The position numbers were made by a program, and so were the translations under genes. A model generated the notes under the pieces. That model did not search any database, was not told where the DNA came from, and saw only the letters and a program-made list of their open reading frames with translations. DNA of 64,000 nucleotides from Anaerolineae bacterium (GTDB lineage: Bacteria > Chloroflexota > Anaerolineae > Aggregatilineales > Phototrophicaceae): positions 14,372 to 78,371 of the forward strand of contig DAOULD010000136.1 of the NCBI GenBank assembly GCA_034420635.1. The letters run 5' to 3'. The stretch's first letter is position 1. Each line of letters starts with the position of its first letter. Shown in pieces: positions 5,400 through 63,370 of the stretch.

Positions 5400-5460
5400 T
5401 GCGCGTTCTCGTGATAGCTTGATATCACACATTGTGAGTTTATTCTGAAACTACAGACAG

Positions 5461-7377: not shown

Positions 7378-9296
7378 AGCAAAACTCAACAGACGATACT
7401 TCTGAATTCAAAGGCGCTGCCGGCGACGTATCGACGCTAGCAAGCATAGTCGTCGTATTGCTGCTTGCTTTTGCCTTGGGCGCCTATGGTCTTGATCGAG
7501 ATTCGCTTATCGGGGATGAACTCAACTCGCTGTCAATCATGGGCGCTTTCGATCAGGCGCATTCGCCGGCCGATGTCGTGGCGCTCTTAAAACAATACGC
7601 TCCGGATCACCAACCGCTTTATTTCGTTCTTGGCTGGGCCTGGGCCCAGTTGACCGGCCTGTCGCAATTTACCATGCGGCTGCATGCCTTGCTGATTGGC
7701 ATGTTGATGTTTGCCTGGCACTATCGCCTGGCAACGGACCTGGCAGGCCGGCGCGTCGCGGTTTTGGCCGCGTTGCTCGTGAGCGCAAACGCCTTGGTCA
7801 TCACAAATCTTCACCACATTCGAATGTACAGTTTGGTCATGCTGTTTGCAGTCATACACTTTTGGCTCTATTGGCGGCTGGTTCACGGGCCTGGCAAGGG
7901 ACGTTTAACATGGAGTCTTTTTGTCGCGTCATGTACCGCCTTTATGTATACCCACAATTATTCTCTTGTATTCTTCGCCGCGCTGGGCATTTATCATTTG
8001 CTCTTCATTGCGCGATCAAGTCAATGGCTTCGGGTAATGGCGGCTTGGGCGCTGGGTTTCGCACTGTTTCTTCCCGGTCTTTGGCTTACTCTGGCTGGGA
8101 TATCTTTCCAATTCGAATACGCAAGGAATCATCCGCTGCTTACACACGAGCTGATTGCGGCTCTGGCGCTGGACTTCAGCAATCATCTTGCCGCGCTTTG
8201 GCTCCCGATGGTTGTTGCCCTCGGTTTGTCGCTATACCGCTGCAGAACGGGGGTCGTTGCGAGGTTGGCGTTTATTGGTCTTGCTATGTTTGTCATTATG
8301 GCTTCAATAAACGCTGTGACGCAAAGCATAGATTGGACAAGAACGCGCTACTTCCTGATGATGTGGCCCCTGTTCGTGATCAGTTTTTCCGCCGCTCTCT
8401 ATTCCTTGCCGCTGAAACGCGTATTATTACCCTTATTCATTTTGCTTTGGGCTGTTTCTGGATATCGAGTCGCGTACACCGATGTTGTCTTCCAATACGC
8501 GTTCGTTTTCTATCCGAACAAAGCGTATCCACCGCTTCACAGATACGTGCAGCACTTGAGGGGAAAGGTCCGCGCAGACGATTATGTGCTCGGCTTTAGA
8601 ACATCGGACGAGATATTTGCGCGTTGGTCCACTGTTGGAGGAACCTTTATCGATTTTTATCTTGGCAACCGATTGGGTATCGACGGCGCTTTCTTGCACG
8701 CCAGCCTCAAACGCTACCGGCTTTCGGAAGACACGCGCGACATTCTCTCGGCTCATCCCCATTTATTGCTGGCTCACGATCCGAGCAATGTCCCGCTCAA
8801 CTACGCGAAAACACTGGAAGTCGTTCAGGAAGTTCTCATGCCATGTGACAAGTTGGCAGATGAACCTGCGTTGTCAATCCGCAGATACGCGCATCCCGTT
8901 ATGGGCTGCGACCATGAACCCGCATCAATTCATTACGAAAACGGCGCGCGCTTGTTGGATCGCGCAGCGCGCTACGATGCAGCCGGGCAGCGAATAGCGG
9001 CATTGACCTGGTGGGAAATCCCGGATGACGAAATGCTGGACTTGTACAATGTTTCACTGCAAATTATCACCCCGGATTGGCAGAATCTGCGCCAAGTCGA
9101 TCGTCACCTTTATCGTCGAATGGTCCCTTGGAGCGTCATTGAGCTGTCTACTGCGGGGCTGCCCGAGGGCGAGTACCGGCTGATGTTGATTCTGTACAGT
9201 CGCGAAACGGGCGAGAGAGTTGGCGCTACAGATTTGTCGAGTGGCGAGTCAGGGTTTATGCTGCCGCTGCTATCTTTCAACATACGCGCTAAATGA
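7374..9296 (+). CDS. GT-C fold membrane glycosyltransferase with C-terminal domain; paralog 3 of 8 (subgroup A)
   Basis: 640 aa. The GTG start overlaps the paralog-2 stop (GTGA). Motifs: LIGDELNSL, APDHQPLYFVL, LHHIRMYSLV, WLYWRLVHG, FMYTHNYS, HPHLLLAHDPSNVPLNYAKTL, MGCDHEPASIHYENG, YNVSLQ, GEYRLMLILY. Confidence 0.8.
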   Translation: MKQNSTDDTSEFKGAAGDVSTLASIVVVLLLAFALGAYGLDRDSLIGDELNSLSIMGAFDQAHSPADVVALLKQYAPDHQPLYFVLGWAWAQLTGLSQFTMRLHALLIGMLMFAWHYRLATDLAGRRVAVLAALLVSANALVITNLHHIRMYSLVMLFAVIHFWLYWRLVHGPGKGRLTWSLFVASCTAFMYTHNYSLVFFAALGIYHLLFIARSSQWLRVMAAWALGFALFLPGLWLTLAGISFQFEYARNHPLLTHELIAALALDFSNHLAALWLPMVVALGLSLYRCRTGVVARLAFIGLAMFVIMASINAVTQSIDWTRTRYFLMMWPLFVISFSAALYSLPLKRVLLPLFILLWAVSGYRVAYTDVVFQYAFVFYPNKAYPPLHRYVQHLRGKVRADDYVLGFRTSDEIFARWSTVGGTFIDFYLGNRLGIDGAFLHASLKRYRLSEDTRDILSAHPHLLLAHDPSNVPLNYAKTLEVVQEVLMPCDKLADEPALSIRRYAHPVMGCDHEPASIHYENGARLLDRAARYDAAGQRIAALTWWEIPDDEMLDLYNVSLQIITPDWQNLRQVDRHLYRRMVPWSVIELSTAGLPEGEYRLMLILYSRETGERVGATDLSSGESGFMLPLLSFNIRAK

Positions 9297-11212
9297 AAGC
9301 AATGCGCGCCGATACTGCAAACGCCAGGAACAGGGATCTCAGCCATTTGTCCCTGCTCGCTCTAACGGTTGTTATATTGCTTTTCTCTTTTGCTGTTGGC
9401 GCGCGCGGGTTGAACGCGGACCTGGTGTGGAATGATGAATTGGCGTCGCTCACCAACTTCGGCGCCTTCAATAGGACACTGACCCTGCAAGGCGTGATCG
9501 AATTAATGCAGCAGTATAGTCCTGCGGATGTACCTGTTTTCCCCTGGATCGGCTACATATGGGCGCGACTAGCTGGATGGTCGCAATTTGCCCTGCGGTC
9601 GCTGTCTCTTTTTGCCGGTGTATTAATGATCGCCCAATTGAATAGCTTTGCGTCCAGAGTTTTCGATCGGCGGGTAGCCGTCGTTGCCTCGTATCTTATC
9701 GGGAGCAGTTCTTTCGTATTGCTTTACTTTCACGAGCTGCGAACCTATACGATTTTCATGCTCTTTGTCACTATCTATTTGACAGCCTATTGGGAGCTTG
9801 CTTTCGCTGCTCGCGCGACGTTTTTTCCCAGGCTGCTTATTCCAATATGTACGGTTGTCCTTCTCTATACGACAATTATTTCGTTAGTCTTTTTCGCGAC
9901 GCTTGCGATAATTCATGTCTTGTTCGCTCCAAAAAGGCGGCAGTGGATAGAGATCGTGTTGAGTTGGGTGCTTGGCGCGATGTTCATGCTTCCGTTCGCA
10001 GCATCGCACGCGCAAGGGGTGGGGCTGGTTACAAATGATGGGTTGGCCGCTTCCGCTCCCGAAGTTCTTTGTGCCTTCTTGCGTCTTGCCGTCAACGGCC
10101 TGGACTTTTTGTGGGCTCCGCTTATAGCTGTTGTGTGCTACGCGCTGTGGAAGACAGCCAATCGCGACCTGCTGCGATTAATCGCGTTTGCGGCGATCAC
10201 GGTCGCGCTCCTGCTGTTGGCGAACGACCAGTTCGCGCTAATTGCTGTAACGCGGATTCGTTATTTCCTGCTCGCCTGGATCCTACTTGTCGTCATTTTC
10301 GCATGCGGCTTGGTCTCATTGCCCCGTTGGAAGTTGCCTACGGTCGTTCTACTGGCGATATGGTTCGTGGCGGGCAGCCAGTTCGGACAATCTGCAGACT
10401 TCTCAACATATTATGCTGGCGCGAAAGCATCCGCGCCGGATGCGCCCCCGCTATCGCAAATTGTAACCCGCCTTCGAGGAAGGGCAGGACCTCAAGACTT
10501 CTTGCTTGGGTTTTATGAATCTTACGATCCGAACTATGTTTGGCAGGTCCACAGCGCCGGAAGCGTCGCCGACTACTACTTGAATACTCAACTGGGCATT
10601 GACGGCGTGTTTCTTCATGCGAATCGCAAACGCTATCGGCTGGAGGAAGACGTCCGGTCGATTCTCAGATCCCATCCTCACGTTCTGCTTGCCCACGACC
10701 CATTGAAAGTCCCGCTGAACTATGCCAGAACGCTTGCGATCATTGAAGAAGATTACCTAGCGTGCGCATCGTTGGTGGAGGAGCCGGCGCTGCGAATCCG
10801 CAAATATGCGCATCCCGTTATGGGCTGCAATCACCAACCCGCTCCCATTGATTACGACAATGACATACGATTAATTGACCGCGCCGCGCGTTACGATACC
10901 GACGCAGAGGTTGTTCAAGCGTTGACCTGGTGGGATGTCCCGGACGGCGAAATGCTGAACCAATACAATATTTCCTTGCAAATCATCACCTCGGATTGGC
11001 AAAACATTCGACAAATTGATCGCCATCTTTATGACGGATTGGTCCCTTGGAGTGTCATTGAACTGTCCACGGCAGATCTCCCCCTCGACGACTACCGGAT
11101 CATGTTGATCTTGTACAATCGAGAGAACGGGTCCAAAGTCCCAGGCGTCGATGAACTCAGCGGCGAATCGGCCGGTATTCTTCCGATTGCGTCTTTTTCC
11201 ATCGACACCTAG
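9293..11212 (+). CDS. GT-C fold membrane glycosyltransferase with C-terminal domain; paralog 4 of 8 (subgroup A)
   Basis: 639 aa. The ATG start overlaps the paralog-3 stop (ATGA). Motifs: VWNDELASL, SPADVPVFPWI, FHELRTYTIF, LLYTTIIS, HPHVLLAHDPLKVPLNYARTL, MGCNHQPAPIDYDND, YNISLQ, DDYRIMLILY. Confidence 0.8.
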   Translation: MKAMRADTANARNRDLSHLSLLALTVVILLFSFAVGARGLNADLVWNDELASLTNFGAFNRTLTLQGVIELMQQYSPADVPVFPWIGYIWARLAGWSQFALRSLSLFAGVLMIAQLNSFASRVFDRRVAVVASYLIGSSSFVLLYFHELRTYTIFMLFVTIYLTAYWELAFAARATFFPRLLIPICTVVLLYTTIISLVFFATLAIIHVLFAPKRRQWIEIVLSWVLGAMFMLPFAASHAQGVGLVTNDGLAASAPEVLCAFLRLAVNGLDFLWAPLIAVVCYALWKTANRDLLRLIAFAAITVALLLLANDQFALIAVTRIRYFLLAWILLVVIFACGLVSLPRWKLPTVVLLAIWFVAGSQFGQSADFSTYYAGAKASAPDAPPLSQIVTRLRGRAGPQDFLLGFYESYDPNYVWQVHSAGSVADYYLNTQLGIDGVFLHANRKRYRLEEDVRSILRSHPHVLLAHDPLKVPLNYARTLAIIEEDYLACASLVEEPALRIRKYAHPVMGCNHQPAPIDYDNDIRLIDRAARYDTDAEVVQALTWWDVPDGEMLNQYNISLQIITSDWQNIRQIDRHLYDGLVPWSVIELSTADLPLDDYRIMLILYNRENGSKVPGVDELSGESAGILPIASFSIDT

Positions 11213-11260
11213 AACCATTTGTGGTACGACGAGACCTTCTGAAAACTCTTCTGCGGCTCA

Positions 11261-13198
11261 ATGGATATGAAGCGCAAAGCCATCGCATCGCGTTCGACGA
11301 ACGCCACAGAAAACGCCCTCATCAGTTGCGGCAGCCTTGCAACTATGGTCGCTGTTTTTTTGCTAGTGTTTGCCATCAGCGTGAGCGGAGCGAATGGCTA
11401 TATCTTCCGCACCGACGAACTGTTTTCTGTCTCCAATATGGGCGGGTTTGATCCGCTTTACGGTCCTGCCGAGATTATTCACTCGATTTCGCAATTCAGC
11501 CCGGATCATGCCCCGCTGTTTTTCTTACTTGGCGCCGGCTGGGCGAGTGTCGCGGGCTGGACACAGTTCGCCTTGCGCATGTTTGCTGTTTTGACGGCGA
11601 TTGTGATGATCGCCTGTTTGTACCGTTATGCGACCGATGCTTTCGATTACCGAACCGGCCTGCTTTCATCGATCTTGATGGGCGCGTCCGCATACTTGGT
11701 TCTGCACTTTCACGACTTTCGCATGTATCCACTGCTGCTTTTGCTTGCGATCGTTCACAGTTGGCTCTATTGGCGGCTGGAGAGCGGACGGGCGGCCAAT
11801 CGGCGGCACTGGACCCTATTTGTTTTCTCGGCGATATCGCTGCTTTATACGCATACGTTTTCGGTCATACTATTTGCCGGACTGGCGGCTTTTCACCTGA
11901 TTCTTGCGCGCAAATCAAATCACTTTATGAAGATTTGGGCGGGATGGGCGATAGCCGCGATTGCTTATTTGCCATACTTTCCGACAACTCTGGCTGCGCT
12001 GGAACAAGCGGCTCAAATCGAAAAAGTGACGGCGGCCGCCGCGAGTATCGGAGAACTGATTGGGACTTTCTCGCATCTGTTGACGAATGGCGCTGACTGG
12101 CTTCTGGTTCCCTTTGGCGCAGCAGTCGTATATGGCGTACTTCGCCTTCGCGACCGCGCCTCTTCGAGGCTGCTGTTTCTTGCGCTTGGGATGCTCATCG
12201 TCCCGCTCGCGCTTAACGAGTTGGTGGGTTTGATTCCGCTCTCGAGGATGCGCTATTTCCTGATACTTTGGTTTCCCTTCCTGTTGCTTTTTGCCCGCGG
12301 GATCACGCTAGCGCCGCGCTGGGCATGGCTGGCGCCGATTCTTGTGATTGCCTGGTCGGTTGCCGCGTATCAATACTATCATTCTGAGGATGTGCTACTC
12401 TACATAGGGGGCATGTCCAAGACGCGCAACTATCCCGCTCTGGACGACTATGTGAGACAGTTGCGCAACAAAGTTCGGTCGGAAGACTTCCTGCTCGGTT
12501 TCGCCCGCAATTACTACCTCAATCACGATCACAAACACGGCAAGAGCGTGTCCGACTATTATACGCAGTTACAATTGGGCATCGACGGCGCATTCGTTCG
12601 CAGCCGGGCGGTCGGTCCTTGGCTCGTCGAGGAGATGGACGAATTGATTGACGGGCATCCGTATCTGTTATTCGCCTATGAGCCGCAGAACGCGCCTGAC
12701 GGACTTGAAGGCGCCATACACGTGATGCACAGCAGGTATAAAGCCTGCGACGTCTTGGTTGATTCCAGTACGCTCTATGTGCAAAGATTCGTCGATCCCT
12801 TGCTGCATTGCGATCGAGCTTCTCTGCGTATCGAATACGAAAATGGTATTGCAATTGCCGATCGCTATGTTGAGTTCCAGCCGGATGCCGCTCTTTTGAC
12901 GTTACTGATCGGCTGGGATGTACCCAACCAGCGTTTGTTGAATGCTTTCAGTTTCTCGCTCCAGGTTCATACGCCACAAGGGGAAAAGGTCGCGGAGGGA
13001 CATAGCGACTTTTATCTGCATCAGTTTTCGCGAAAGTGGAACACGCTTAAACTGCCTATCGCCGGCATCGCTCCTGGTGAGTATCGTCTGGTTGTCATTC
13101 TGTATAATACCGAGAGCGGGAAGAAAGTCGGGGGAGTCGATATTTCCACAGGCGAGACGGGCACGATTCTTCCGATTCTTTCCTTTACTGTAGAATAG
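11261..13198 (+). CDS. GT-C fold membrane glycosyltransferase with C-terminal domain; paralog 5 of 8 (subgroup B)
   Basis: 645 aa. Motifs: IFRTDELFSV, SPDHAPLFFLL, FHDFRMYPLL, WLYWRLESG, LLYTHTFS, RMRYFLILW, HPYLLFAYEPQNAP, LHCDRASLRIEYENG, GEYRLVVILY. Confidence 0.8.
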   Translation: MDMKRKAIASRSTNATENALISCGSLATMVAVFLLVFAISVSGANGYIFRTDELFSVSNMGGFDPLYGPAEIIHSISQFSPDHAPLFFLLGAGWASVAGWTQFALRMFAVLTAIVMIACLYRYATDAFDYRTGLLSSILMGASAYLVLHFHDFRMYPLLLLLAIVHSWLYWRLESGRAANRRHWTLFVFSAISLLYTHTFSVILFAGLAAFHLILARKSNHFMKIWAGWAIAAIAYLPYFPTTLAALEQAAQIEKVTAAAASIGELIGTFSHLLTNGADWLLVPFGAAVVYGVLRLRDRASSRLLFLALGMLIVPLALNELVGLIPLSRMRYFLILWFPFLLLFARGITLAPRWAWLAPILVIAWSVAAYQYYHSEDVLLYIGGMSKTRNYPALDDYVRQLRNKVRSEDFLLGFARNYYLNHDHKHGKSVSDYYTQLQLGIDGAFVRSRAVGPWLVEEMDELIDGHPYLLFAYEPQNAPDGLEGAIHVMHSRYKACDVLVDSSTLYVQRFVDPLLHCDRASLRIEYENGIAIADRYVEFQPDAALLTLLIGWDVPNQRLLNAFSFSLQVHTPQGEKVAEGHSDFYLHQFSRKWNTLKLPIAGIAPGEYRLVVILYNTESGKKVGGVDISTGETGTILPILSFTVE

Positions 13199-13236
13199 AG
13201 TTAGCGCTTCAATCTCATCGTGGGAAGAAGTCGCAA

Positions 13237-15192
13237 TTGGCAACTTTTCCCGACTGGGGAGACTTCGTCTTGCAGTTCCGCAGCATCTTCTCCGACAAAC
13301 ATGATACTATCGGCAAGGACGCGTCATCTTTGCTGATGGTCTTCGTTCTCCTCTGCGTTTTTGTGTTTGGCGCCAATGGCTTGAATACCGACTCCATCTG
13401 GACCGATGAGCTATACGCCATTACCAACATGGGTGGATTCGACGGACCTTATTCGCCGGCGGAAGTTGTCAATTCAGTAGCCGAGAACTTCCCCGATCAC
13501 GTGCCGCTCTTCTTCTTGCTTGGCGCCGGCTGGGCAAACTTCGTGGGATGGACGCAATTCGCCCTGCGCTTGTTGCCGGTATTCGCGGGCGTACTCATGA
13601 TTGCCTGGACGTATCGCCTGGCGAGCGACATGTTTGATCGTTTTGCTGGCTTGGCTGCCGCAAGTCTCTTGGCTACCTCGGCCTACATGGTCCTGTATAT
13701 CCATGACTTCCGTATGTATTCACTGTTTCTCACGCTCGCTATTGTACATTTGTGGCTTTATTGGAAACTGATGGAGCGCAAATCAATAGATGGCCGTCCG
13801 ACATTTGTGGCTTTCGTGTTGTCGGCGGTTGCGCTGATTTACACGCACTTCTTCTCGATCATCTTTTTCACAGGGCTTGGCGCATATCATCTCCTAATCT
13901 TGCGGAAGTCTCGCCGTTGGTGGCAAACGTTGCTAGGCTGGGCGATTGCCGCAACGCTCTTCTTGCCCTATCTGCCGGTCTTGATTGCTGGCGTTCAGCG
14001 CGCTGCGGACAAGCCAAATGTCACTAGCAGAGCGGCTTCGGCTCCCGAATTGCTTTCCACGTTTCTCTGGCTGCTGACAAACGGGGCGCCCTGGCTGCTG
14101 GTTCTCCTGACTCTGCTTGTGGCTATCGGCTTTCGTCGCCGGCGCGATCATAAGGCTGCAAAATTCACGCTGATCCCGCTGACGATGGTGATCTTGATCA
14201 TCGTCGCCAATGAGTGGATTGGTCTCATCCCCTTGACCAGGATGCGATATTTCTTGATTGTCTGGATTCCGATGTTCCTCATCATAGCTTATGGCTTGAG
14301 TGCTTTGCCGAGCCGGCGCGCCGTGACAACGCTCATCATGCTGATGTGGTGTCTGTCTGGCTTTCAGTTTTATCGGTCAGAAGAGATCATGAACCATGTA
14401 GGCAGTATGGTGTTTACCAGGCTCTATCCGCCACTGCCTGATTATGTCTGGCATTTGACGGGAAAACTGCGCTCGGAGGATTATCTGCTGGGATTCTCCA
14501 AGAGCAGCCATGTGAACAAAGTCCTGACACTGGGGAAGAGTGTGGCGGATTATTACACGCAGGAGCAACTGGGTATCAATGGCGCCTTTATCCGTCGTGG
14601 CGCCTATGGAGAATGGCTGGAAGGTGAGATCAGGCAATGGATGGGAAATCAGCCCTATCTATTATTCGCGTTTGATCCTCAAGATTTGCCAAACAGTTAT
14701 CAGCGAGTGCGCGAAGTCATCGAAAGCAAGTATTTGCAATGCGAAGTCGTGGTGGAAGAACCGCAACTTTTTGTCCAGCGCTATGTCAATTTACGTCTGG
14801 GCTGTGACCGCGAATACCGGCCGATAGCCTATGAAAATGGCGTGACGCTGGTCGACCGTTTCGCCCAATATGCTCCGGAAGAGCAGAAAGTCTACATCCT
14901 TACCGGTTGGGAAGTGGAGAACGAAGAGGCGCTATATGAGTATAATTTGTCCTTGCAATTCATCACGCCGGATTGGCAACGACTGGGAGCGCAAATCGAC
15001 CGCCATCTTTATGATAATATTCTCCCGTGGTTTACGGCCGAATTGTCTACCGAGGATCTGCCGCCCGGCGATTATCGCCTGATGGTCATCCTCTACGATC
15101 GCGAATCGCGGAAGAAAGTGGGGGGAGTCGTCCTGGCCAGCGGGTGGGAAGACAGTATCTTCCCGATAGTCTCGTTTACCGTAGAAGCCTGA
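13237..15192 (+). CDS. GT-C fold membrane glycosyltransferase with C-terminal domain; paralog 6 of 8 (subgroup B)
   Basis: 651 aa; the longest ORF starts at TTG, so the true start is uncertain. Motifs: IWTDELYAI, FPDHVPLFFLL, IHDFRMYSLF, WLYWKLMER, LIYTHFFS, RMRYFLIVW, QPYLLFAFDPQDLP, LGCDREYRPIAYENG, YNLSLQ, GDYRLMVILY. Confidence 0.8.
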   Translation: MATFPDWGDFVLQFRSIFSDKHDTIGKDASSLLMVFVLLCVFVFGANGLNTDSIWTDELYAITNMGGFDGPYSPAEVVNSVAENFPDHVPLFFLLGAGWANFVGWTQFALRLLPVFAGVLMIAWTYRLASDMFDRFAGLAAASLLATSAYMVLYIHDFRMYSLFLTLAIVHLWLYWKLMERKSIDGRPTFVAFVLSAVALIYTHFFSIIFFTGLGAYHLLILRKSRRWWQTLLGWAIAATLFLPYLPVLIAGVQRAADKPNVTSRAASAPELLSTFLWLLTNGAPWLLVLLTLLVAIGFRRRRDHKAAKFTLIPLTMVILIIVANEWIGLIPLTRMRYFLIVWIPMFLIIAYGLSALPSRRAVTTLIMLMWCLSGFQFYRSEEIMNHVGSMVFTRLYPPLPDYVWHLTGKLRSEDYLLGFSKSSHVNKVLTLGKSVADYYTQEQLGINGAFIRRGAYGEWLEGEIRQWMGNQPYLLFAFDPQDLPNSYQRVREVIESKYLQCEVVVEEPQLFVQRYVNLRLGCDREYRPIAYENGVTLVDRFAQYAPEEQKVYILTGWEVENEEALYEYNLSLQFITPDWQRLGAQIDRHLYDNILPWFTAELSTEDLPPGDYRLMVILYDRESRKKVGGVVLASGWEDSIFPIVSFTVEA

Positions 15193-15245
15193 GCGCTAAT
15201 TGATCAAGCTCTGCCGTCGCAGATCTACAGGTACGGAATCAAGCC

Positions 15246-17195
15246 ATGCGCGCTGCACAATCCAGTAGCTCAAAGCAAAAGCGAAATACGGAACAGGACG
15301 CAAACGGTTGGGAGATCGGCCGCGGAAGCGCGCTGGCCTTGCTGACTATCATAATGTTGATGGCTTTTGCTTTCGGCGCCAATGGACTGAATACCGAACC
15401 GATTTGGGCGGATGAATTGTATTCTCTGACCAATATGGGTGTTTTCGATCCACCCTATAGCCCACAACAGATCATCAATTCGATTACAACCTATAGTTCG
15501 GATCATGTACCGCTGTATTACCTGCTGGGATCGGTATGGGCGCAATTAGTCGGATGGTCCCAGGTTTCCATGCGCATGTTTTCGGTGCTGTCCGGGGTGC
15601 TTATGATTGCATGGCTTTATCGCCTGTCAACGGAAGTATTCTGCCAGCGGACAGGTTTGATTGCGGCGCTGCTCATGACCACATCGGCTTACGTAATTGT
15701 CTTCTTCCACGATATCCGCATGTATACGATGCTGTTATTGCTGTTCGCCATGCAGGCCTGGTTCTATTGGCGAATTGCTCACACACAGCAAGTGTCCCGC
15801 CTGTACTGGGTCGCATTCTTCTTATCTGCCTTGGCTCTACTTTATACACATGTATTCTCGCTGCTGGTTTTCACACTGCTCGGCTTATACCACCTGTTAT
15901 TTGCGCCACGGTCGGCGCGCTGGCTTCGTTTGCTGACTGTTTGGGGACTAACCGGGCTGCTGTTTTTGCCGTATTTACCAACATTGTTTACCGCCATTGC
16001 TTTGGCCGCGGAAAACGTAAAGGTGACGACTGCCGCGGCGTCTATCCCGGAATTGATCTACAATTTTGCTTTCCTGCTCTTCAATGGTCAGGATTTGTTG
16101 ATCCCGCTGTTTGCAGGGATTGTGATTTACTCCTTATGGCGCACCCGTTCCAGCGTCGCCTGGAAATTCGCGCTGGTGTCGCTGGCGGTATTGCTGCTGA
16201 TCACTTTGCTCAACGAGCTTGTGGGCATCATCCCGGTAAAGCGCATGCGATATTTCCTCATCTTGTGGATCCCCTTCGTCATGATCTGCGCCTTTGGCCT
16301 TACATCAATGCCGCGTTGGCGCCGCGCCACTTTTTTGTTCGCGCTGATTTGGATATCTGCGGGTTACCAATTCTATCGCTCACAACAACTGTTAGACTAT
16401 ATTGGCGGTATGCAGAAGGCGCGTCTTCACCCGCCAATACACGAATACGCGGACGCGCTGCTTGGCAAGGTTCGGTCGGAAGACTTCCTGCTGGGGTTTT
16501 CCTTCGTTGATTATGTGAACAATGTCTACAAGTTTGGCGATAACGTGATTGACTATTATACCGGCGCGCAGTTGGGTATCGACGGCGCTTTTATTCCCTG
16601 GCGCTGGAGTGGGGAACGTTTGATGATCGATCTCGTTCGCAAGATCGATCGACATCCCTATATCTTGCTCGCCTACCATCCAAATGACCTCAAAAAGAAT
16701 CACGAAGACGTGTACGAGTACATCGCGGCCCGCTACGATAGTTGCGAGGCGATCATTGATAGAGAAGACCTGTTTGTTCAGCGTTTCGTGAATCCCCTAG
16801 CGGGTTGCCAGCACGAATACCTGCCCATTCATTTCGAAAACGGAATCATCATCGTCGACCGATTCGGCGAGTACGATGCGACGAAGGACCTGTTTCGGAT
16901 CGTCACCGGTTGGGAAGTCGCGTCCGATCAGCAGCTTGACCAATACAATATCTCGATACAGTTGCTGGATTCTGAATGGGAGAAATACTGGCAAGGCGAT
17001 TGGCATCTCTACAATCGCATCTTGAAATGGCACGAATTGGAATTCCAGCCGACTCGCCAACTCACTCCAGGCGTTTACCGCCTCGTGGTTATCCTATACG
17101 ATCGCGAAACTGGCGAGAGAGTCGCGGGCGTAGACTTAAGCAGTGGCGAAACCGGCCAGCTTCTGCCGCTCTTGACCATCTCTGTCGAAGCCTAG
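15246..17195 (+). CDS. GT-C fold membrane glycosyltransferase with C-terminal domain; paralog 7 of 8 (subgroup B)
   Basis: 649 aa. Motifs: IWADELYSL, SSDHVPLYYLL, FHDIRMYTML, WFYWRIAHT, LLYTHVFS, RMRYFLILW, HPYILLAYHPNDL, AGCQHEYLPIHFENG, YNISIQ, GVYRLVVILY. Confidence 0.8.
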   Translation: MRAAQSSSSKQKRNTEQDANGWEIGRGSALALLTIIMLMAFAFGANGLNTEPIWADELYSLTNMGVFDPPYSPQQIINSITTYSSDHVPLYYLLGSVWAQLVGWSQVSMRMFSVLSGVLMIAWLYRLSTEVFCQRTGLIAALLMTTSAYVIVFFHDIRMYTMLLLLFAMQAWFYWRIAHTQQVSRLYWVAFFLSALALLYTHVFSLLVFTLLGLYHLLFAPRSARWLRLLTVWGLTGLLFLPYLPTLFTAIALAAENVKVTTAAASIPELIYNFAFLLFNGQDLLIPLFAGIVIYSLWRTRSSVAWKFALVSLAVLLLITLLNELVGIIPVKRMRYFLILWIPFVMICAFGLTSMPRWRRATFLFALIWISAGYQFYRSQQLLDYIGGMQKARLHPPIHEYADALLGKVRSEDFLLGFSFVDYVNNVYKFGDNVIDYYTGAQLGIDGAFIPWRWSGERLMIDLVRKIDRHPYILLAYHPNDLKKNHEDVYEYIAARYDSCEAIIDREDLFVQRFVNPLAGCQHEYLPIHFENGIIIVDRFGEYDATKDLFRIVTGWEVASDQQLDQYNISIQLLDSEWEKYWQGDWHLYNRILKWHELEFQPTRQLTPGVYRLVVILYDRETGERVAGVDLSSGETGQLLPLLTISVEA

Positions 17196-17201
17196 ACGCT
17201 C

Positions 17202-19112
17202 ATGCTAGATCCAGCCCCAGGCAAACGTCACCTATTCCAGGCTTTTCCTCGCTGGTGGCGGATGCTGCCGATATTACTGCTGGTAACGCTGCTGGCGGCG
17301 GGTGGGATTAACGCCGATGTCATCTGGTACGATGAACTGACTTCAATCGGCCATGCTGGCGGCTTGACGGGACCCTTTTCGCCGCTGGACGTGCTTCACT
17401 CGATCAGCACGCACAGCCCCAAACATGGTCCCTTGTTCTTTGAATTGCTGGCGGGTTGGGGCGCGCTTGTGGGGTGGCATCATGTTGTCTTGCGCTGCTT
17501 GCCACTCTTCTTTGGCGTTCTGACGGTCGCCTGGGTATACCGTATTGGGCAGGATTTTCTGGGTTGGCGCGCGGGACTATGGGCCAGCGCTTTCCTGGGG
17601 CTGAACGTCTTCTGGTTGGAGTACTTTCACGAAATCCGAATGTACACCGCGCAAGCGGCTATGCTCGTAGCGATGCTTTGGCATTACTTGCACATCGTGC
17701 AATCAAAGTCGACTATTGGCAAAGTACGTTGGTTCGGGCTGATCCTCACGGCATCGTTGTCACTATATGCCCAGCCTTTTTCACTCTTTGTTTTCCTGGC
17801 TGTCGGCTTCTATCACCTGGTATTCGTTCCCAAAACGAAGCGCTGGATTCATACTGCTCTGGCGTTTTTGCTTGTCGGCGTACTATACCTGCCTTGGCTT
17901 CCAGTAACTTACGTAGGGTTGACAACAAAGTTTGACGCTTGGGGAGAAATGCCCTTTGAGCAGGCGGTGGACGTCTTTCTCCAACTGCTGTCTAACGGAA
18001 ACTGGTTGGTGATTCTGATCGCGCTTGCTGCGGCTGCCTTGCACCTGCGGAAGCGCGAGAACTTGAAAAAAGCCTTGCCGTTTTGGGTGCTTGCCTTTGT
18101 CATCCTGGCGCTTCTATTGTCGGTGAATGAAGCTGTTAGACTTATTCCTTTACGCCGGTCTCGCTATTTCTTTGTCGTCTTTTACCCCGCCGCGCTAATC
18201 GTTGGCAGTGGCTTGGCATGGATACGACCGCGTCCGCTACCGATAATCCTCCTGGCGCTGTATATCGGTTCGGGGTTTGTCTTGCGCGGCAGGGACGATT
18301 ATGTCAATTATCAAGGTACGATTCGCGCCATCCAGAGTTATCCTCCCATTTACGACTACGTTCTGGCATTGCGGGATCTTGTCTCCGAAGAAGACTTCGT
18401 GGTCGGATTCTCCAACATCAATTTCATCATACGTCGAGGCAAAGTTGGCAAGAGCACGGCGGATTATTATTTTGAAACGCTGATGGGCATCGATGGAACC
18501 TTTATTCGAACGAACCTTGATAACGCTCAACTTGAGGAGGATATACCAGACAAGCTGGAAGACCATCCCTATCTTCTCTTTACCTACAATCCCTTGGACA
18601 AACCGGCGATCTTCGACCGAACCAGGTCAATCATCGAGAGAGATTATGCGCCTTGCGAACTTGTTTTAGACGAAGCGGAACTCCGCGTAGAGCGCTATGT
18701 CTACCGTACTCTGGACTGTGACCGCAAATATCAGCCGATTCGCTACGACAATGGCATCTCCATCGTTGACAAATTCGCTGATTTCATTCCCGATCGCGAT
18801 GTCCTGCGCGTCGTGACCGGATGGGAAGTGGCCGACAAAGCGCTTCTGGACCAATACAATATATCGATTCAGATCCATTCGCTGGACGGGCAAAAGGTCG
18901 CTCAAATCAACCCGGATCGTCACCTTTACCATGATGTCCTGAAGTGGTTCGTTGTGGAGTTGTCCACGTCAGATCTGTCGCCTGGCGACTATAGGGTTGT
19001 AGTCCTGGTCTATGACCGATATCCTCCGCACGCGAAGGTCTTCGGCAGCGACATCGAATCCGGCGAGTACGGGAAGATATTGCCCATACAGTCCTTCAGC
19101 ATTCCGGGATAG
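17202..19112 (+). CDS. GT-C fold membrane glycosyltransferase with C-terminal domain; paralog 8 of 8 (subgroup B, most divergent)
   Basis: 636 aa, starting 6 nt after the paralog-7 stop. Motifs: IWYDELTSI, SPKHGPLFFEL, FHEIRMYTAQ, SLYAQPFS, RSRYFFVVF, HPYLLFTYNPLDKP, LDCDRKYQPIRYDNG, YNISIQ, GDYRVVVLVY. Confidence 0.8.
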   Translation: MLDPAPGKRHLFQAFPRWWRMLPILLLVTLLAAGGINADVIWYDELTSIGHAGGLTGPFSPLDVLHSISTHSPKHGPLFFELLAGWGALVGWHHVVLRCLPLFFGVLTVAWVYRIGQDFLGWRAGLWASAFLGLNVFWLEYFHEIRMYTAQAAMLVAMLWHYLHIVQSKSTIGKVRWFGLILTASLSLYAQPFSLFVFLAVGFYHLVFVPKTKRWIHTALAFLLVGVLYLPWLPVTYVGLTTKFDAWGEMPFEQAVDVFLQLLSNGNWLVILIALAAAALHLRKRENLKKALPFWVLAFVILALLLSVNEAVRLIPLRRSRYFFVVFYPAALIVGSGLAWIRPRPLPIILLALYIGSGFVLRGRDDYVNYQGTIRAIQSYPPIYDYVLALRDLVSEEDFVVGFSNINFIIRRGKVGKSTADYYFETLMGIDGTFIRTNLDNAQLEEDIPDKLEDHPYLLFTYNPLDKPAIFDRTRSIIERDYAPCELVLDEAELRVERYVYRTLDCDRKYQPIRYDNGISIVDKFADFIPDRDVLRVVTGWEVADKALLDQYNISIQIHSLDGQKVAQINPDRHLYHDVLKWFVVELSTSDLSPGDYRVVVLVYDRYPPHAKVFGSDIESGEYGKILPIQSFSIPG

Positions 19113-42523: not shown

Positions 42524-43945
42524 TTATAGTGCAGATACCAATTGGCGAAAGTGATCTCCGCGCTCGGCAAAGTCGGCATAGGCATCGTAGCTCGTTCCGC
42601 CGGGCGACAAGAGCACAACATCACCATCTTGCGCGACTTCAGATGCGCGATGCACAGCCTCTTCCAGCGTCTGCGCCCGCAATACCTGATCGTCGCGGAC
42701 AGACATCAGCGAAAGCAGCTTCATGACCTTGATGGCGACCTGTTTCTCGCCCTCCTTGCCGAAGATGATGACATGGCGCGCTTTTGCCAGCGCCAACTGA
42801 ATCGCGCCTTCCCAAGGCAAGTCTTTGTCCGCGCCACCGATCAGCAATATCAGTGGTTCGTCGTAGCTTTGCAAGGCGGCAATCAGGCGTTCCGGCGCGG
42901 TAGCGATACTGTCATTCACGTATGTGACGCCGGCGATTCGGCGCACTGTCTCTAGTCGATGCTCCACCGGGCGAAAGGCGCGAATCGCCTCGCGCATCGC
43001 CTCGGGCATGACGCCGGGACGATCGATGGCTAATCCCATCGAACCGCTTATCGCGCAAGCCGCTAGGACATTCGCCGCATTATGATCGCCGCGCAGGGGG
43101 ATCTCGTCCCGCGGGCAGACAACATGCGGCGTCGAATCGTAACTGGCGGATCCTGCCACAAAAACACGATTACCTAATAGAAACGCGCCATCGGGCACCA
43201 GATCATAGGCGCTGAACGCCGACAGTTCGCCGCGAACAAGCTGCTCCATCGCGCGGCTGCCGGGGTCATCCCAGCCAAGCACGGCGACGTCTGTTTGCTT
43301 CTGGTATCGGATGATGTTGGCTTTGGCAGCGGCATAACGCTCCAGTGTGCCGTGCCGGTCAAGATGATTGGGCGTCAAGTTGAGCAGGGCAGCGACTTGC
43401 GGGCTGTTGCTCATCAACTCCAGTTGAAAACTGGAAAGCTCCATGACAACCACATCGTTTTTCGTGATTTTGGGAAGGTTTTCAACAAGCGGGTTTCCGA
43501 TATTGCCCCCCAGCCAGACCGTGTAGCCGGCTGCCCCCAGTATCTTTGCCACCAGGGCGGCGGTCGTTGTCTTCCCGGCGCTGCCGGTGATGCCAATGAC
43601 GGGGGCTGGGCACCGCTCGATAAACAATTGCGCGTCGTTGGTAAAGGGAATATTGCGCTTGCGCGCCAAGTCAAATATCGGCAGGTCCAGCGGAACCCCG
43701 CCGGAAACACAGATGGCTTTTGCGCCGATCAATACTTCTTCCGGATGTCCGCGCAGAAAGAAACGCGCACCGGGATATTGTGAGCGGCGGATGCCCAACT
43801 CTTTCGCGCCGCGACTATCTGTGACCACAACCTCGGCGCCGATGGTTGGCAACCAGCGCGCTAAGGCTCTTCCTTGCCGTCCAAAGCCGAATATGACAAT
43901 TCGTTTACCGGACAAGTAGTCTCGTGCTGGCATTAGTCGAGGCAA
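42524..43945 (-). CDS. murD: UDP-N-acetylmuramoylalanine--D-glutamate ligase
   Basis: 473 aa. Motifs: VIFGFGRQGRALARWL, the P-loop IGITGSAGKTTTAALV, and NDSIATAPER. Confidence 0.9.
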   Translation of the reverse strand: MPRLMPARDYLSGKRIVIFGFGRQGRALARWLPTIGAEVVVTDSRGAKELGIRRSQYPGARFFLRGHPEEVLIGAKAICVSGGVPLDLPIFDLARKRNIPFTNDAQLFIERCPAPVIGITGSAGKTTTAALVAKILGAAGYTVWLGGNIGNPLVENLPKITKNDVVVMELSSFQLELMSNSPQVAALLNLTPNHLDRHGTLERYAAAKANIIRYQKQTDVAVLGWDDPGSRAMEQLVRGELSAFSAYDLVPDGAFLLGNRVFVAGSASYDSTPHVVCPRDEIPLRGDHNAANVLAACAISGSMGLAIDRPGVMPEAMREAIRAFRPVEHRLETVRRIAGVTYVNDSIATAPERLIAALQSYDEPLILLIGGADKDLPWEGAIQLALAKARHVIIFGKEGEKQVAIKVMKLLSLMSVRDDQVLRAQTLEEAVHRASEVAQDGDVVLLSPGGTSYDAYADFAERGDHFRQLVSAL

Positions 43946-43956
43946 TCCTGAACCAG

Positions 43957-44037
43957 CGCTGCTCGGCGCGTAACCGGCGAAAAGATTCCAGGAATGTCGC
44001 GCTCGCGCAAAATAGCAAGTCTGCTTGTCGCACGAGC
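43957..44037 (-). repeat. ~80-nt interspersed intergenic repeat, copy D (forward on the minus strand)
   Basis: The minus strand reads GCTCGTGCGAC-22nt-GAGCGCGACATTCCTGGAATCTTTTCGCCGGTTACGCGCCGAGCA. The 45-nt core has 5 mismatches and no gaps against copy A. The copy fills most of the mraY-murD spacer. Confidence 0.8.
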
Positions 44038-44072
44038 GCCGCAGTCTACATAAACAGGTGGGAGCGCGCGCA

Positions 44073-45122
44073 TCAAAGCGGTCCGAGCGCGCGCTGCCGC
44101 AGCAGCGCCAATGCCACGCCGATGAATGCGCAAAGAATGCTGATCAGCCAAAAGCGCTGTACGATTTGCGTCTCGCTCCAGCCGCCCAATTCAAAGTGAT
44201 GATGTATTGGCGTGCGGCGAAAGGGCCGGATATCCACGCCGTAAAAGCGTCGGCTCAACTTGGCGGAAGCCACTTGCAAAATCACGCTCAAAATCTCCAT
44301 AACGGGCACGATCGCGATAATCGGCAACAAGAGCCACTGACCGGTCATAACCGCGACCGTGCCGAGCGTCGCGCCCAGAGCCAGGGAGCCCGTATCTCCC
44401 ATAAACAACTGTGCGGGATGCGCGTTGTACCAGAGAAATGCGAAACAAGCGCCGACGACTATGAAACAAAGGTCAATCAAGAAAATCTGATTCTGCAAAT
44501 AGGCGATAACGCCGTAAGCGCCGAAGGCGCTCGCGGTCACTATACCGGCAAGACCATCCAATCCATCGGTGAAATTGGTCGCGTTGGAACTGCCGATGAT
44601 GATAAAGGTGCTGATCGCGATAAAGATTAACGGATGCAATGGGATTTCTACCGGTATCAGCGGAAGCGGCATGGAGTTGGCGTAGGAAAAGCCAACCTGT
44701 GACATGATGGTGGATGCGATCAAAGCCAAGACAATCTGTCCCAGAAACTTCACTTTGCCGGACAAGCCTTCGCCGACGCTGCCCCGCGATGTCTGTATTC
44801 CTTCCCAATCGTCGATCAAGCCCAACAGAGCGAACCCAATCAATACCGACAGCGGCAGCAAGATGCTGCGCCCTTCGCCTTCCTGAACAATCCGTGAGAT
44901 ATTGAGAGCGAGCGTGATGGCAATTGTTGGCAGGATGATCATGATCCCGCCCATCGTTGGTGTGCCGACTTTCTTCACATGCGCGCTGTCCATCAACTCT
45001 GCGCGGATCTGCTTGCCGAGCTTGAAGCGGTGCAGGATCTCTACAAAGGGACCACCCCAGATAACACCCAGTAAGAATGTCGCCCCACCTACGCTTAATG
45101 CCAGCGGTAGTTTCGCCTCCAT
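44073..45122 (-). CDS. mraY: Phospho-N-acetylmuramoyl-pentapeptide transferase
   Basis: The ORF track gives 44073..45197. ATG 45122 (MEAKLPLAL) follows the ftsI stop by 13 nt. Motifs: GTPTMGG, LIDDW, NATNFTDGLDGLA, and the polytopic HHHFEL. Confidence 0.9.
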   Translation of the reverse strand: MEAKLPLALSVGGATFLLGVIWGGPFVEILHRFKLGKQIRAELMDSAHVKKVGTPTMGGIMIILPTIAITLALNISRIVQEGEGRSILLPLSVLIGFALLGLIDDWEGIQTSRGSVGEGLSGKVKFLGQIVLALIASTIMSQVGFSYANSMPLPLIPVEIPLHPLIFIAISTFIIIGSSNATNFTDGLDGLAGIVTASAFGAYGVIAYLQNQIFLIDLCFIVVGACFAFLWYNAHPAQLFMGDTGSLALGATLGTVAVMTGQWLLLPIIAIVPVMEILSVILQVASAKLSRRFYGVDIRPFRRTPIHHHFELGGWSETQIVQRFWLISILCAFIGVALALLRQRALGPL

Positions 45123-46901: not shown

Positions 46902-47408
46902 CTAGCTGCCAAAGGCTTCGATTTGTTCTCGCAAAGTCGCTAGTTGCCGCTGTATCCAGCCATTGAATGTCTCATCATAGACCGGACTTGGATCCTGGTT
47001 AGCGCGCGCGCTCGCCGCTTCCGCAAAGGAATTTCTGCGCGTCGGGCTGTAGCCCTCGATCACCACATAATCTATTTCATCGTTGGTCGCCGGGCGAAAA
47101 CCGATATCTTGGGCGCGCAGTGTCAAGCGCGGGACCGTACGAAACCGGGCAATCTCTGCGATTAACTGTTCATTTGTGTATTTGAGTTCGTCACGCTGGA
47201 CAATCAAGTCTTCAATGGTTCGGTTGGTGATGGCGAAGGACGCGACCTGTGAGAGATAGATGCTGCCAAGCGCGAGCAAAATAGCGGTGCCGAGGATCGC
47301 AAGCATCGCCGCTTGATTGCGGGCATAGAAGCGTTTGCGGCTAAGCGTATGTTGAAACCAATTCTGTGCCATCTTACTCTTTTTTGATTTGCTCCCTTGC
47401 TCATGCAA
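46902..47408 (-). CDS. ftsL: FtsL-like cell division protein (single TM plus coiled coil)
   Basis: 168 aa. A basic N-terminus and the TM segment AMLAILGTAILLALGSIYL are followed by a coiled-coil-like TNRTIEDLIVQRDELKYTNEQLIAEIA. The TTG start at 47408 lies inside repeat copy A, so ATG 47372 (MAQNWFQ) is a plausible true start. Confidence 0.5.
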   Translation of the reverse strand: MHEQGSKSKKSKMAQNWFQHTLSRKRFYARNQAAMLAILGTAILLALGSIYLSQVASFAITNRTIEDLIVQRDELKYTNEQLIAEIARFRTVPRLTLRAQDIGFRPATNDEIDYVVIEGYSPTRRNSFAEAASARANQDPSPVYDETFNGWIQRQLATLREQIEAFGS

Positions 47409-47476
47409 GTAGTGTGATTACTATTTCATATGAGCGCGACATTCCTGGGACCCTTTCGCCGGTTACGCGCCCAGCG
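47399..47476 (+). repeat. ~80-nt interspersed intergenic repeat, copy A (forward on the plus strand)
   Basis: GCTCATGCAAG-22nt-GAGCGCGACATTCCTGGGACCCTTTCGCCGGTTACGCGCCCAGCG. It lies in the rsmH-ftsL spacer, antisense to the dcw transcript. Confidence 0.8.
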
Positions 47477-47593
47477 ACTATTGATTGGTCTTTCCGAACA
47501 GTTGCTCAGCCGACTGTAAGTCCAGGGTCTTGCTAAAGCCGGCGCAAACATAGTTACAAATTTATCAAAAACGCGATATTTCGCAACAGAGGT

Positions 47594-52874: not shown

Positions 52875-52963
52875 GTGCTTCACAGCGCCAACTGCCCGGG
52901 TCGAGGCAGCTTGATCTCTTGTCTGGGCGCGGCAGTTCTGGTCGCTGCCGCCGAGCGGCTGGC

Positions 52964-62085: not shown

Positions 62086-62137
62086 AGCCGATTAAAGGGG
62101 CAGCCGGTTGGCTGTCTCTCATCTAATAGATCGCGTC

Positions 62138-62215
62138 GCTCATGCAAGGAAAGGACTTGTTATTTTGCGTGAGCGCGACATTCTTGTGGACAATTCGCCG
62201 GTTACGCGCCGAGCG
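62138..62215 (+). repeat. ~80-nt interspersed intergenic repeat, copy B (forward on the plus strand)
   Basis: GCTCATGCAAG-22nt-GAGCGCGACATTCTTGTGGACAATTCGCCGGTTACGCGCCGAGCG. It ends 15 nt before the probable M20 start codon. Confidence 0.8.
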
Positions 62216-62230
62216 GCTGAAAGGGGAAAG

Positions 62231-63370
62231 ATGTCGGAATTGCTCAATTATTTCGCAGATCGTACAGAATCCATGCTAGACGCGCTGACGGAGATGGTCA
62301 GGCGCGAGTCCTTCACGCGCGAGAAGGCGCAGGTCGACCGGCTCGTCGACTGGATGGGTGAGCGGTTCCAAGCCATGAAGGCCGATTCGATCCTCCGCTA
62401 TCCGCAGGAAACATGCGGCGACTTTTTGCTGGCCAAGTGGAACGCGGACGCGCCCGGCAAGCCATTCCTTTTCTTGGTCCACGTCGATACCGTGCATCCG
62501 ATCGGATCGCTGGAAACCATGCCGATCAAGATCGAGGACGGACGCTATTATGGTCCCGGCTCACTTGATATGAAGGGCGGCACGGTCATTGCTCTGGAGG
62601 CCATCGACGGTTTGAGGAAGCGAAGCCAGTTGCCGGCTCGTCCTATTCTCTTTTTGGTGACCACGGAAGAAGAAATCGGCAGCCCCGTTTCCGAACCGCT
62701 GATCAAGCGACTGGCAGCGCATAGCGAACTTGTGCTAGTGATGGAGCCAGCAACCAAAGAAGGCACGATCAAAACCTGGCGCAAGGGCGGCGGCAAATAC
62801 GAGTTGATCGTGAAAGGGAGGGCGGCGCACGCCGGCATCGCGCCACAGGAAGGCATTAACGCCATCATTGAATTTGCGCAGCAGGCTCTGGAAATCAATC
62901 GGCTGAACGATCTCAAGTATGGCACATCAGTCTCGATTACTGTGGTAGAGGGAGGCTCCGCCGGCAACGTGATTCCGGCGCGGGTCGAAGCTCATATTGA
63001 TACGCGCGTCATGACCATCGACGCGATGAATAGCCTGCACGACGCGCTTACCAGTCTCTATCCCAAGATGCCCGGCGCAAAGGTGATTTGCAGGCGGCAC
63101 GGGCATCGCCCGCCCATGGAACGTCGCTCGGGCTTGTTTGAAAAGGCGAGGTCCATTGGCGACAAGCACGGGATAACAATATTCGAAGGCGGAACCGGCG
63201 GTGGCTCGGACGGCAATTTCACTGCGGCCATGGGCGTTCCCACGCTGGATGGCTTGGGCGCGCATGGCGATGGCGCGCATGCGCCCCACGAACACGTCAT
63301 TATCAGCAGCTTGCCGCGCCAGGCGGCATTGATCGCGGCGCTGCTCCTGGAGTGGAACGCCGAAGGCTGA
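62231..63370 (+). CDS. M20 family metallopeptidase (carboxypeptidase G2 / glutamate carboxypeptidase-like)
   Basis: The ORF track starts at 62108 and would read through repeat copy B. ATG 62231 (MSELLNYF) is preceded by GGGGAAAG. Motifs: LVHVDTVHP, GPGSLDMKGG, TTEEEIGS, and C-terminal GGGSDGNF. Confidence 0.8.
   Translation: MSELLNYFADRTESMLDALTEMVRRESFTREKAQVDRLVDWMGERFQAMKADSILRYPQETCGDFLLAKWNADAPGKPFLFLVHVDTVHPIGSLETMPIKIEDGRYYGPGSLDMKGGTVIALEAIDGLRKRSQLPARPILFLVTTEEEIGSPVSEPLIKRLAAHSELVLVMEPATKEGTIKTWRKGGGKYELIVKGRAAHAGIAPQEGINAIIEFAQQALEINRLNDLKYGTSVSITVVEGGSAGNVIPARVEAHIDTRVMTIDAMNSLHDALTSLYPKMPGAKVICRRHGHRPPMERRSGLFEKARSIGDKHGITIFEGGTGGGSDGNFTAAMGVPTLDGLGAHGDGAHAPHEHVIISSLPRQAALIAALLLEWNAEG

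Follow-up and report, generated by a model that had tools for sequence, protein, structure and literature searches.

IS110-family elements are now in use as programmable bridge recombinases, and the rules of their guides have been described for IS621 (Durrant et al., 2024; PMC11208160): the left guides correspond to the top strand, the right guides to its reverse complement, and the core is part of every guide. With the bridge RNA provided in trans, a donor of 22 bp is enough (PMC11208160). At IS110 loci, recognition by the donor arm alone can be sufficient, off-target insertions match part of the bridge RNA, and tandem units share a core (bioRxiv 10.64898/2026.08.31.748434, 10.64898/2026.08.14.744561); tandem non-coding repeat units have also been found beside IS110 transposases (bioRxiv 10.64898/2026.08.14.744561). 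A MITE-like element, MITEPpu9, is tied to the IS110-family ISPpu9 of Pseudomonas putida, where it is present in eight copies that mostly adjoin the IS and carries the sRNA gene ssr9 (PMC12288879). In the literature we found no report of a dispersed ~100-bp IS110 derivative at hundreds of copies.

Here we describe a repeat from a metagenome-assembled genome (G000; 4.7 Mb, 227 contigs) of the Chloroflexota (Anaerolineae, Aggregatilineales), which falls near records labelled 'Phototrophicaceae', many of them from sponges. The window, the 64-kb stretch of DNA that was analysed, is C136:14372-78371, and positions given without a contig are window positions. The copy of the repeat between mraY and murD, copy D, is best read as one insertion of a 90–103-bp non-autonomous mobile element derived from an IS110-family insertion sequence, a reading to which we give a probability of about 0.8. 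The family shares with IS621 and other IS110 elements the lack of terminal inverted repeats and a CT core that is single in the target and stands on both sides after insertion. Its parent encodes the DEDD_Tnp_IS110 and Transposase_20 domains behind a long non-coding left end, and the preferred target is an intergenic motif found repeatedly, much as IS621 prefers REP (PMC11208160). Unlike IS621, the miniature element encodes neither recombinase nor bridge RNA, having kept only ~13 nt from the left end and ~55 nt from the right, and it exists in hundreds of copies, most in sites that match the guides poorly.

The likeness to MITEPpu9 lies in being non-autonomous, in being bounded by left- and right-end sequences of an IS110-family element, and in a proposed movement with a transposase acting in trans. 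However, the present family is ~100 bp long, has no recognisable cargo, and numbers ~150–400 candidate copies per genome that are dispersed between housekeeping genes. Core-sharing tandems resembling those reported at IS110 loci occur here too, as head-to-tail repeat pairs with one common CT (C221:14689-14878 and C118:11542-11728 of G000) and as an IS joined to a repeat in the congener G049; the published cases are full IS with local expansion, whereas the units described here are independent miniature elements dispersed genome-wide. We think it somewhat better than an even bet that this is the first family with hundreds of copies per genome of miniature IS110 derivatives that have no terminal inverted repeats, transposase or bridge RNA and are moved in trans by a bridge recombinase, with the target specified by the guides occupied by young copies and half-matched CT sites by older ones.

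The repeat in the mraY-murD spacer and its family

Both genes flanking copy D lie on the minus strand of the window: mraY at 44073–45122 (stop TGA at 44073–44075; Pfam Glycos_transf_4, 128.8 bits, and the ORF list) and murD at 42524–43933 (Pfam Mur_ligase_M, Mur_ligase_C and MurD-like_N). The murD ATG at 43931–43933 aligns with the start in all relatives compared, and the mraY-murD spacer is therefore 139 nt, compared with ~40 nt in relatives without the element. Counting the CT at each end, copy D is 103 nt long and occupies 43955–44057 on the minus strand (nhmmer match C136:58329-58428, E=1.2e-19). The CT at 44056–44057 is the 5′ core dinucleotide, which is single in empty sites, and the inserted element proper is the 101 nt at 43955–44055, GTTTATGTAGAC...GAGCAGCGCT, which includes the 3′ CT at 43955–43956. 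The element starts 15 nt past the mraY stop, ends 21 nt ahead of the murD ATG and runs in the same direction as the dcw genes, so the sense orientation just upstream of murD reported in an earlier sequence-only reading is confirmed. That reading had placed an ~80-nt repeat at 43957–44037; the location was right, but family alignments and empty sites show that this interval covers only the 3′ four-fifths of the element.

From its 5′ end, copy D consists of a left terminus (CT|TATTTAACGAGCC, 44043–44055) that shares homology with the parental IS110-type left end; a variable stem-loop, with an outer helix and an inner hairpin, whose structure is kept while its sequence varies (44017–44050); a conserved block, GCTATTTTGCGCGAGC, that matches the right-end block GTTATTTTGTGTGAGC of the IS (44001–44016); and a right-end module with a GCGCG...CGCGC hairpin region and the terminus CGCGCCGAGCAGCGCT, for which the family consensus is CGCGCCGAGCGGCT (43955–44000), all on the minus strand.

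A 40-nt core pattern has three matches in the window, against none in 100 shuffles, and an iterated nhmmer search of the whole genome returned 166 hits, 118 of them full length (~165 copies), which bears out the original claim that the repeat is real. Besides copy D, the window holds a full copy on the plus strand at 47379–47479, antisense to the dcw genes (C136:61750-61850, E=3.2e-15) and also found in the sister genome G012 at 87% identity; a second full plus-strand copy, B, at 62119–62218 (C136:76490-76589, E=1.1e-21), which is alignable only in part in G012; and a partial copy covering family positions 29–94 at 52900–52960, also on the plus strand (C136:67271-67331, E=7.2e-7). A 'left-hand extension' had been noted as common to copies B and D. 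It is present in both, but it is part of the element in all copies. Copy B lies 12 nt before the ATG of an M20 peptidase gene at 62231. The longest ORF of this peptidase runs through the repeat (62108–62230), and with the repeat masked the start is the ATG at 62231, behind GGGGAAAG; ORF callers should not extend genes through copies of this kind.

The 3′ boundary of the family is sharp (...CGCGCCGAGCGGCT|), with the last 14 nt more than 90% conserved in 130 copies. At the 5′ end the consensus is CT|N(T/A)TTT(A/T)AYAAACC, with pyrimidines in front, and CT occupies family positions 1–2 in 75–79% of copies. Overall the copies are highly diverse, with a mean pairwise identity of 70% and a maximum of 95.5%. 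When the 5′ 17 nt were compared with the reverse complement of the 3′ 17 nt, only one of 17 positions matched, so a MITE in the strict sense, having terminal inverted repeats and a target-site duplication made by a DDE transposase, is ruled out by the lack of such repeats. We use 'MITE-like' loosely, for a miniature non-autonomous element.

Two truncated copies in G000 (C43:22857-22960 and C125:48858-48960) have in common an alternative 3′ end, ...CGCTGCCGAAGG(C/T)CAGTGTCTACGCGAC, which looks like a left end from a third IS110 type (G042: CAGTGTCTACGCGACCC); these are possibly chimeric elements. The two genes of 401–402 aa beside them were considered as transposases and are in fact radical-SAM-like and MscS-like. 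Elsewhere in the window, positions 3700–19000 hold about eight paralogous units in tandem (families D1-D8) with a period of 1.9–2.0 kb and 60–85% nucleotide identity, which looks like a tandem array of related genes.

Empty sites and polymorphism

Copy D is shared only with the sister genome G012, where it is 93% identical within flanks that are ~95% identical. It was not found in G022, G008, L100, L101, L102, L141 or L142, although the MurD proteins of these relatives are 92–97% identical; for L100, L101, L102 and L141 the figure is 94–97%. The empty site of G022 and G008 reads TGA-TGCGCGCCTTGCCAGGTCT|GGTCCAGGATT..., with one CT at the target position, and the filled site of G000 reads ...CCCACCT[GTTTATG...GAGCAGCGCT]GGTTCAGGATT... 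By this distribution the insertion would date to the common ancestor of G000 and this one sister genome. Another locus, L105, has a different, 89-nt copy at a slightly shifted point of the same spacer, which is an independent insertion. The absence of copy D from the closest relatives, together with the separate copy in L105, indicates that the insertion is recent and the spacer permissive. The long mraY-murD spacer is an accident of recent insertion, and a leader or riboswitch annotation is not warranted.

Other sequences were also seen in this spacer. In L007, L011 and L019 (congeners G004, G010 and G003) it holds a different insertion of 250–300 nt, whose ends, CT|GTTTACGTTG ... GGTATTTTGCGTGAGCCGCTGC..GCAGCGCGTGTGTCTAC, resemble a second IS110 subfamily (C118, G022), and IS110-derived elements appear to have landed repeatedly in the mraY-murD spacer. 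Many congeners (L006-L021) have a conserved promoter-like box, (T)GCACTATAAT(T/A), 60–90 nt before murD. It is present where the spacer is long and absent from G000 and its closest relatives, in which the spacer without the repeat is ~40 nt; only some members of the genus may have a separate promoter for murD.

For the comparison of G000 with its sister, 1.16 Mb of G012 was fetched and 0.95 Mb of it aligned to G000. Within this alignment 23–25 copies are common to both genomes, seven (plus three partial) occur only in G000, and 12 (plus one partial) only in G012; ~45% of copies are polymorphic for presence or absence between two genomes that are ~94% identical. Where a clean filled site in one of the two genomes could be paired with an empty site in the other, the empty site has a single CT and the filled site has one on either side of the element. 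In G012, copies at different loci are 100% identical over 89 nt, which indicates very recent copying. Across 61 genomes of the genus, the repeat is abundant in G000, G012, G049, G052, G059, G066 and G056 and absent or rare in about 40. The suggestion in the sequence-only reading of a small mobile repeat that tolerates operon spacers has thus held up, through polymorphic copies and empty sites, and the repeat can now be assigned to the IS110 family.

Orientation, fold and divergence of resident copies

The other suggestion made from the sequence was that copy D, in its sense orientation, might be a cis-regulatory RNA (a leader, attenuator or processing site) or a protein-binding site controlling murD. 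The position of copy D 21 nt upstream of the murD start, the similar placement of copy B before the peptidase gene, the covariation of one stem (below) and the strong conservation of the 3′ block across copies are what this idea would have in its favor. Copy D is presumably co-transcribed with the dcw operon. As for the family, genes were mapped over the whole genome with a simple Markov gene finder (4234 calls, 90% coding), and 145 copies were placed relative to the neighbouring genes in the orientation of the element itself. Because the gene finder was barred from calling starts through repeats, the statement that no copy overlaps a gene is circular, and we did not use it as evidence. In co-directional spacers 39 copies are sense and 52 antisense, which is no bias (p=0.21); 40 copies lie in divergent and eight in convergent spacers, and this spread follows intergenic length (expected 85/38/16; p=0.11). 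An enrichment beside gene starts, which had p=0.0005 when judged by the number of spacers, was gone once it was normalised by intergenic length (p=0.11).

Searches for a regulatory structure gave equally little. Rfam returned no matches on the window at the gathering threshold and none on copy D at E<=10. Folded as RNA in its context, copy D is not more stable than shuffled sequences (z=-0.12), and a consensus scan of copy D for promoters and terminators found none, including at a stem followed by TTTT that looks like an intrinsic terminator by eye. The minimum-free-energy fold of copy D contains a long helix, GCGCTCGTGC/GCGCGAGCGC, but this belongs to one subfamily only and is unsupported across the family.

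RNAalifold gave no usable consensus on the family alignment, and covariation was measured directly instead. Four pairs in the stem-loop of the 5′ half covary (9-43, 10-42, 18-31 and 20-29), with Watson-Crick fractions of 0.58–0.81 compared with 0.42–0.55 in shuffled alignments. The outer helix of this stem is the subterminal inverted repeat of the parent IS, AACGAGCC/GGCTCGTT. In the covarying stem, G.T occurs as often (9.2%) as A.C (10.0%), which favors neither strand as RNA, and the covariation of the stem is no argument for RNA. The sequence-only reading had described a selfish repeat as one with random orientation, random distance to starts and no covariation; orientation and context are indeed random, while one stem does covary.

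The rate of change in resident copies bears on the same question. Among orthologous copies shared by G000 and G012, 216 of 1964 sites differ (11.0%), compared with 10.2% in other intergenic DNA and 12.3% at codon position 3, from which we conclude that resident copies decay essentially neutrally. Codon positions 1 and 2 differ at 3.9% and 2.5%, respectively. With copy D missing from relatives whose MurD is nearly the same and whose spacer is ~40 nt, with random orientation, neutral-rate divergence and no sign of a regulatory RNA from Rfam, the fold, the consensus scan or the G.T to A.C comparison, the cis-regulatory reading is largely refuted, and we regard it as extremely improbable. Copy D has no demonstrable role in murD expression.

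A variant of host function is that the repeats were once mobile and are now domesticated, as landing pads for a nucleoid protein or recombinase or as mRNA stabilisers, with a useful conserved 3′ block. Columns conserved in the family are slightly less diverged in the shared copies (8.3%, against 10–12%), which may reflect weak constraint on resident copies; copies also survive where no IS110 gene is detectable, as in the closed genome G066, and the IS of G049 appears to have been targeted beside a repeat copy. However, the reduction is small next to the constraint on coding positions (2.5–3.9% at codon positions 1 and 2), nearly half of the copies are polymorphic between two closely similar genomes, and the repeat is patchy in the genus, with none or few copies in about two-thirds of the genomes surveyed (~40/61). 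Domestication thus seems to us very unlikely. The conserved blocks of the family are probably kept by selection for transposition competence and not by the host.

The parent IS110 element and its putative guides

Scanning the IS110 loci of congeners with the repeat model identified an element of 1591 bp in G049 (L088 reverse complement, 646-2236) with a 422-aa ORF that matches DEDD_Tnp_IS110 (PF01548, 70.2 bits) and Transposase_20 (PF02371, 33.8 bits). Its left end is CT|TTTTTAACGAGCC and its right end GGGCTCGTTATTTTGTGTGAGC-CAAGTTCTAAACGTG-CGAGCGGCT, with the internal block also given as GTTATTTTGTGTGAGC. The left terminus, the internal block and the right terminus are all common to this IS and the repeat, and the IS adjoins a full repeat copy with which it has one CT in common (L088). 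An IS of the same architecture is present in 21 copies in G001, and nhmmer aligns positions 31–57 of the repeat model to the right ends of the IS copies of both G001 and G049. In the parent, AACGAGCC at the left end and GGCTCGTT at the right end are inverted repeats of each other, and in the miniature element they come together as the outer helix.

Left ends of this IS were seen in G049, in G001 and at contig ends of G000. G000 thus has this IS type too, though in unassembled form: its left-end fragments are 73% identical to G049 over ~230 nt (the ends of C46 and C21 and the start of C198), and right-end fragments are 91% identical (starts or ends of C195, C55, C126 and C222), finish in CGAGCG(A/G)CT and carry the conserved block. 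The repeats also explain many contig breaks in assemblies of this sponge-associated clade. Contig C72 of G000 (1801 nt; reverse complement ~nt 120-605) holds an internally deleted derivative of the parent, ~490 bp long. Its left end, the putative bridge-RNA region, is complete at ~265 nt; 10 codons are left from the start of the transposase gene, and the right end is there as well. This derivative may represent a non-autonomous, 'bridge-RNA-only' kind of element, and C46 and C21 break exactly where it departs from the full-length form. Neither the G000 nor the G012 assembly contains an intact transposase gene for this type of IS; all that was seen are end fragments and the C72 derivative. The sole assembled IS110 gene of G000 (C118) was rejected as the parent: it belongs to another subfamily, with ends CT|GTTTTCTTTGCC ... 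GGGTCT, and scores 3.9 bits against the repeat model. Among the repeat-rich genomes an IS110 gene was found only in G049, and not in the closed, single-contig G066, which has ~150 candidate copies.

The absence of terminal inverted repeats, the subterminal hairpins at both ends and the clean insertion directly 3′ of a fixed short motif (..CT) are also what one would expect of a REP/REPIN- or IS200/IS605-type hairpin element (PATE), moved as single-stranded DNA by a Y1 (HUH) transposase or RAYT. Like REP/BIME and REPIN sequences, the present family is short, high-copy, intergenic and hairpin-forming, varies in ways that preserve structure, and is tolerated in operon spacers. The enzymes for such a pathway did not turn up, however: Y1_Tnp (PF01797) had no match in G000 or G012, the one member of the genus with clear IS200-like matches, G023, is free of the repeat, and no RAYT/Y1 gene was found in the repeat-rich genomes tested. 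There is no TnpB either (PF07282 had no match in G000, and no TnpB genes were found in G000 or G012). The family also differs in lacking inverted REP pairs, and its termini and internal block belong to an element that encodes a DEDD IS110 transposase. Movement by a Y1 enzyme is hardly credible on this evidence, and we return to an origin from an IS110 element.

An alignment of the left ends of three IS variants revealed two guide-like stretches that covary. The first, resembling a target guide, changes from GAGCGCCU-ACCACAG in G000 and G001 to GAGCGUCC-AAAAAAG in G049, and tracks the flanks of its own IS, which are ...GCGCCT|CT ... CT|GTGGT in one case and ...GCGTCC(T)|CT ... CT|TTTTT in the other. 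The second, resembling a donor guide, changes from CAAAAUAAG to CAAAAAAAG, in step with a left-end start of CT-TATTT or CT-TTTTT. These stretches of the parent left end thus covary with donor ends and target flanks, and the changes appear to follow the LTG/RTG/RDG strand rules described for IS621 (PMC11208160), with the left end as a putative bridge RNA. In Rfam the only match to the IS left end was an unrelated tRNA.

The repeat copies are data independent of the IS left ends that gave the predicted target. In G000 the flanks of the repeat match GCGCCT|CT|GTGGT at 4.33 of 11 positions on average, compared with 2.90 of 11 for 56,216 intergenic CT sites (Mann-Whitney p=4e-12). The identical young copies of G012 all lie in ...CTCTGYGCCT|CT...CT|GTGGTGA, a near-perfect target, while most older copies are not in guide-matched targets. 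The flanks of copy D match the predicted target at 3 of 11 positions, which fits the 'half-match' off-target behavior reported for IS621 (bioRxiv 10.64898/2026.08.31.748434), and its left end, CT|GTTTATG, disagrees with the right donor guide of this type of IS, which calls for CT|TATTT.

Taken together, these data suggest how copy D may have arisen. From its parent the element retains ~13 nt at the start of the left end, a stem made by the 8-bp subterminal inverted repeat, the right-end block GTTATTTTGYGTGAGC, a right-end hairpin, and the right terminus CGAGCGG followed by the CT core. We infer that it is mobilized in trans, with a full-length IS of this type supplying both the DEDD recombinase and the bridge RNA. 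The donor-binding guides of that RNA would pair with the ends of the element, and its target-binding guides with a CT-containing target, ideally GCGCCT|CT|GTGGT, with loose 'half-match' sites tolerated; recombination at CT would leave a CT on each side of the element. Copy D would have landed at an off-target-like CT in the mraY-murD spacer and would since have been carried passively in the spacer of the dcw operon, decaying neutrally; the murD start and the 21 nt before it are intact.

The main interest of the family would be that of a high-copy natural mini-substrate of RNA-guided (bridge) recombinases. Natural mini-donors of ~100 bp at hundreds of copies suggest how little donor sequence may be needed in vivo. 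If the reading is right, these genomes of sponge-associated Chloroflexota record both the minimal donor (~13 nt left and ~55 nt right) and the off-target spectrum of a bridge recombinase; presence/absence polymorphisms supply clean filled and empty sites, and a parent IS with readable guides permits natural targeting to be compared with the guide-specified target.

A repeated intergenic motif, ...TTTTCTCTG(C/T)GC(C/G)CTCTG(C/T)GCCT-CT-GTGGTGAAT..., is the preferred landing site of the IS and of the youngest miniature copies, and its recurrence between genes is the counterpart of REP for IS621. It was seen in the flanks of C72 and C198 in G000, in the flanks at C1:21482, C45:99240 and C47:30033 in G012, and in L018. 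The G049 IS differs in its target guide, AAAAAAG, which matches CT+TTTTT, the start of a repeat copy; this match would explain the tandems, of repeat with repeat as well as of IS with repeat, that have a common CT.
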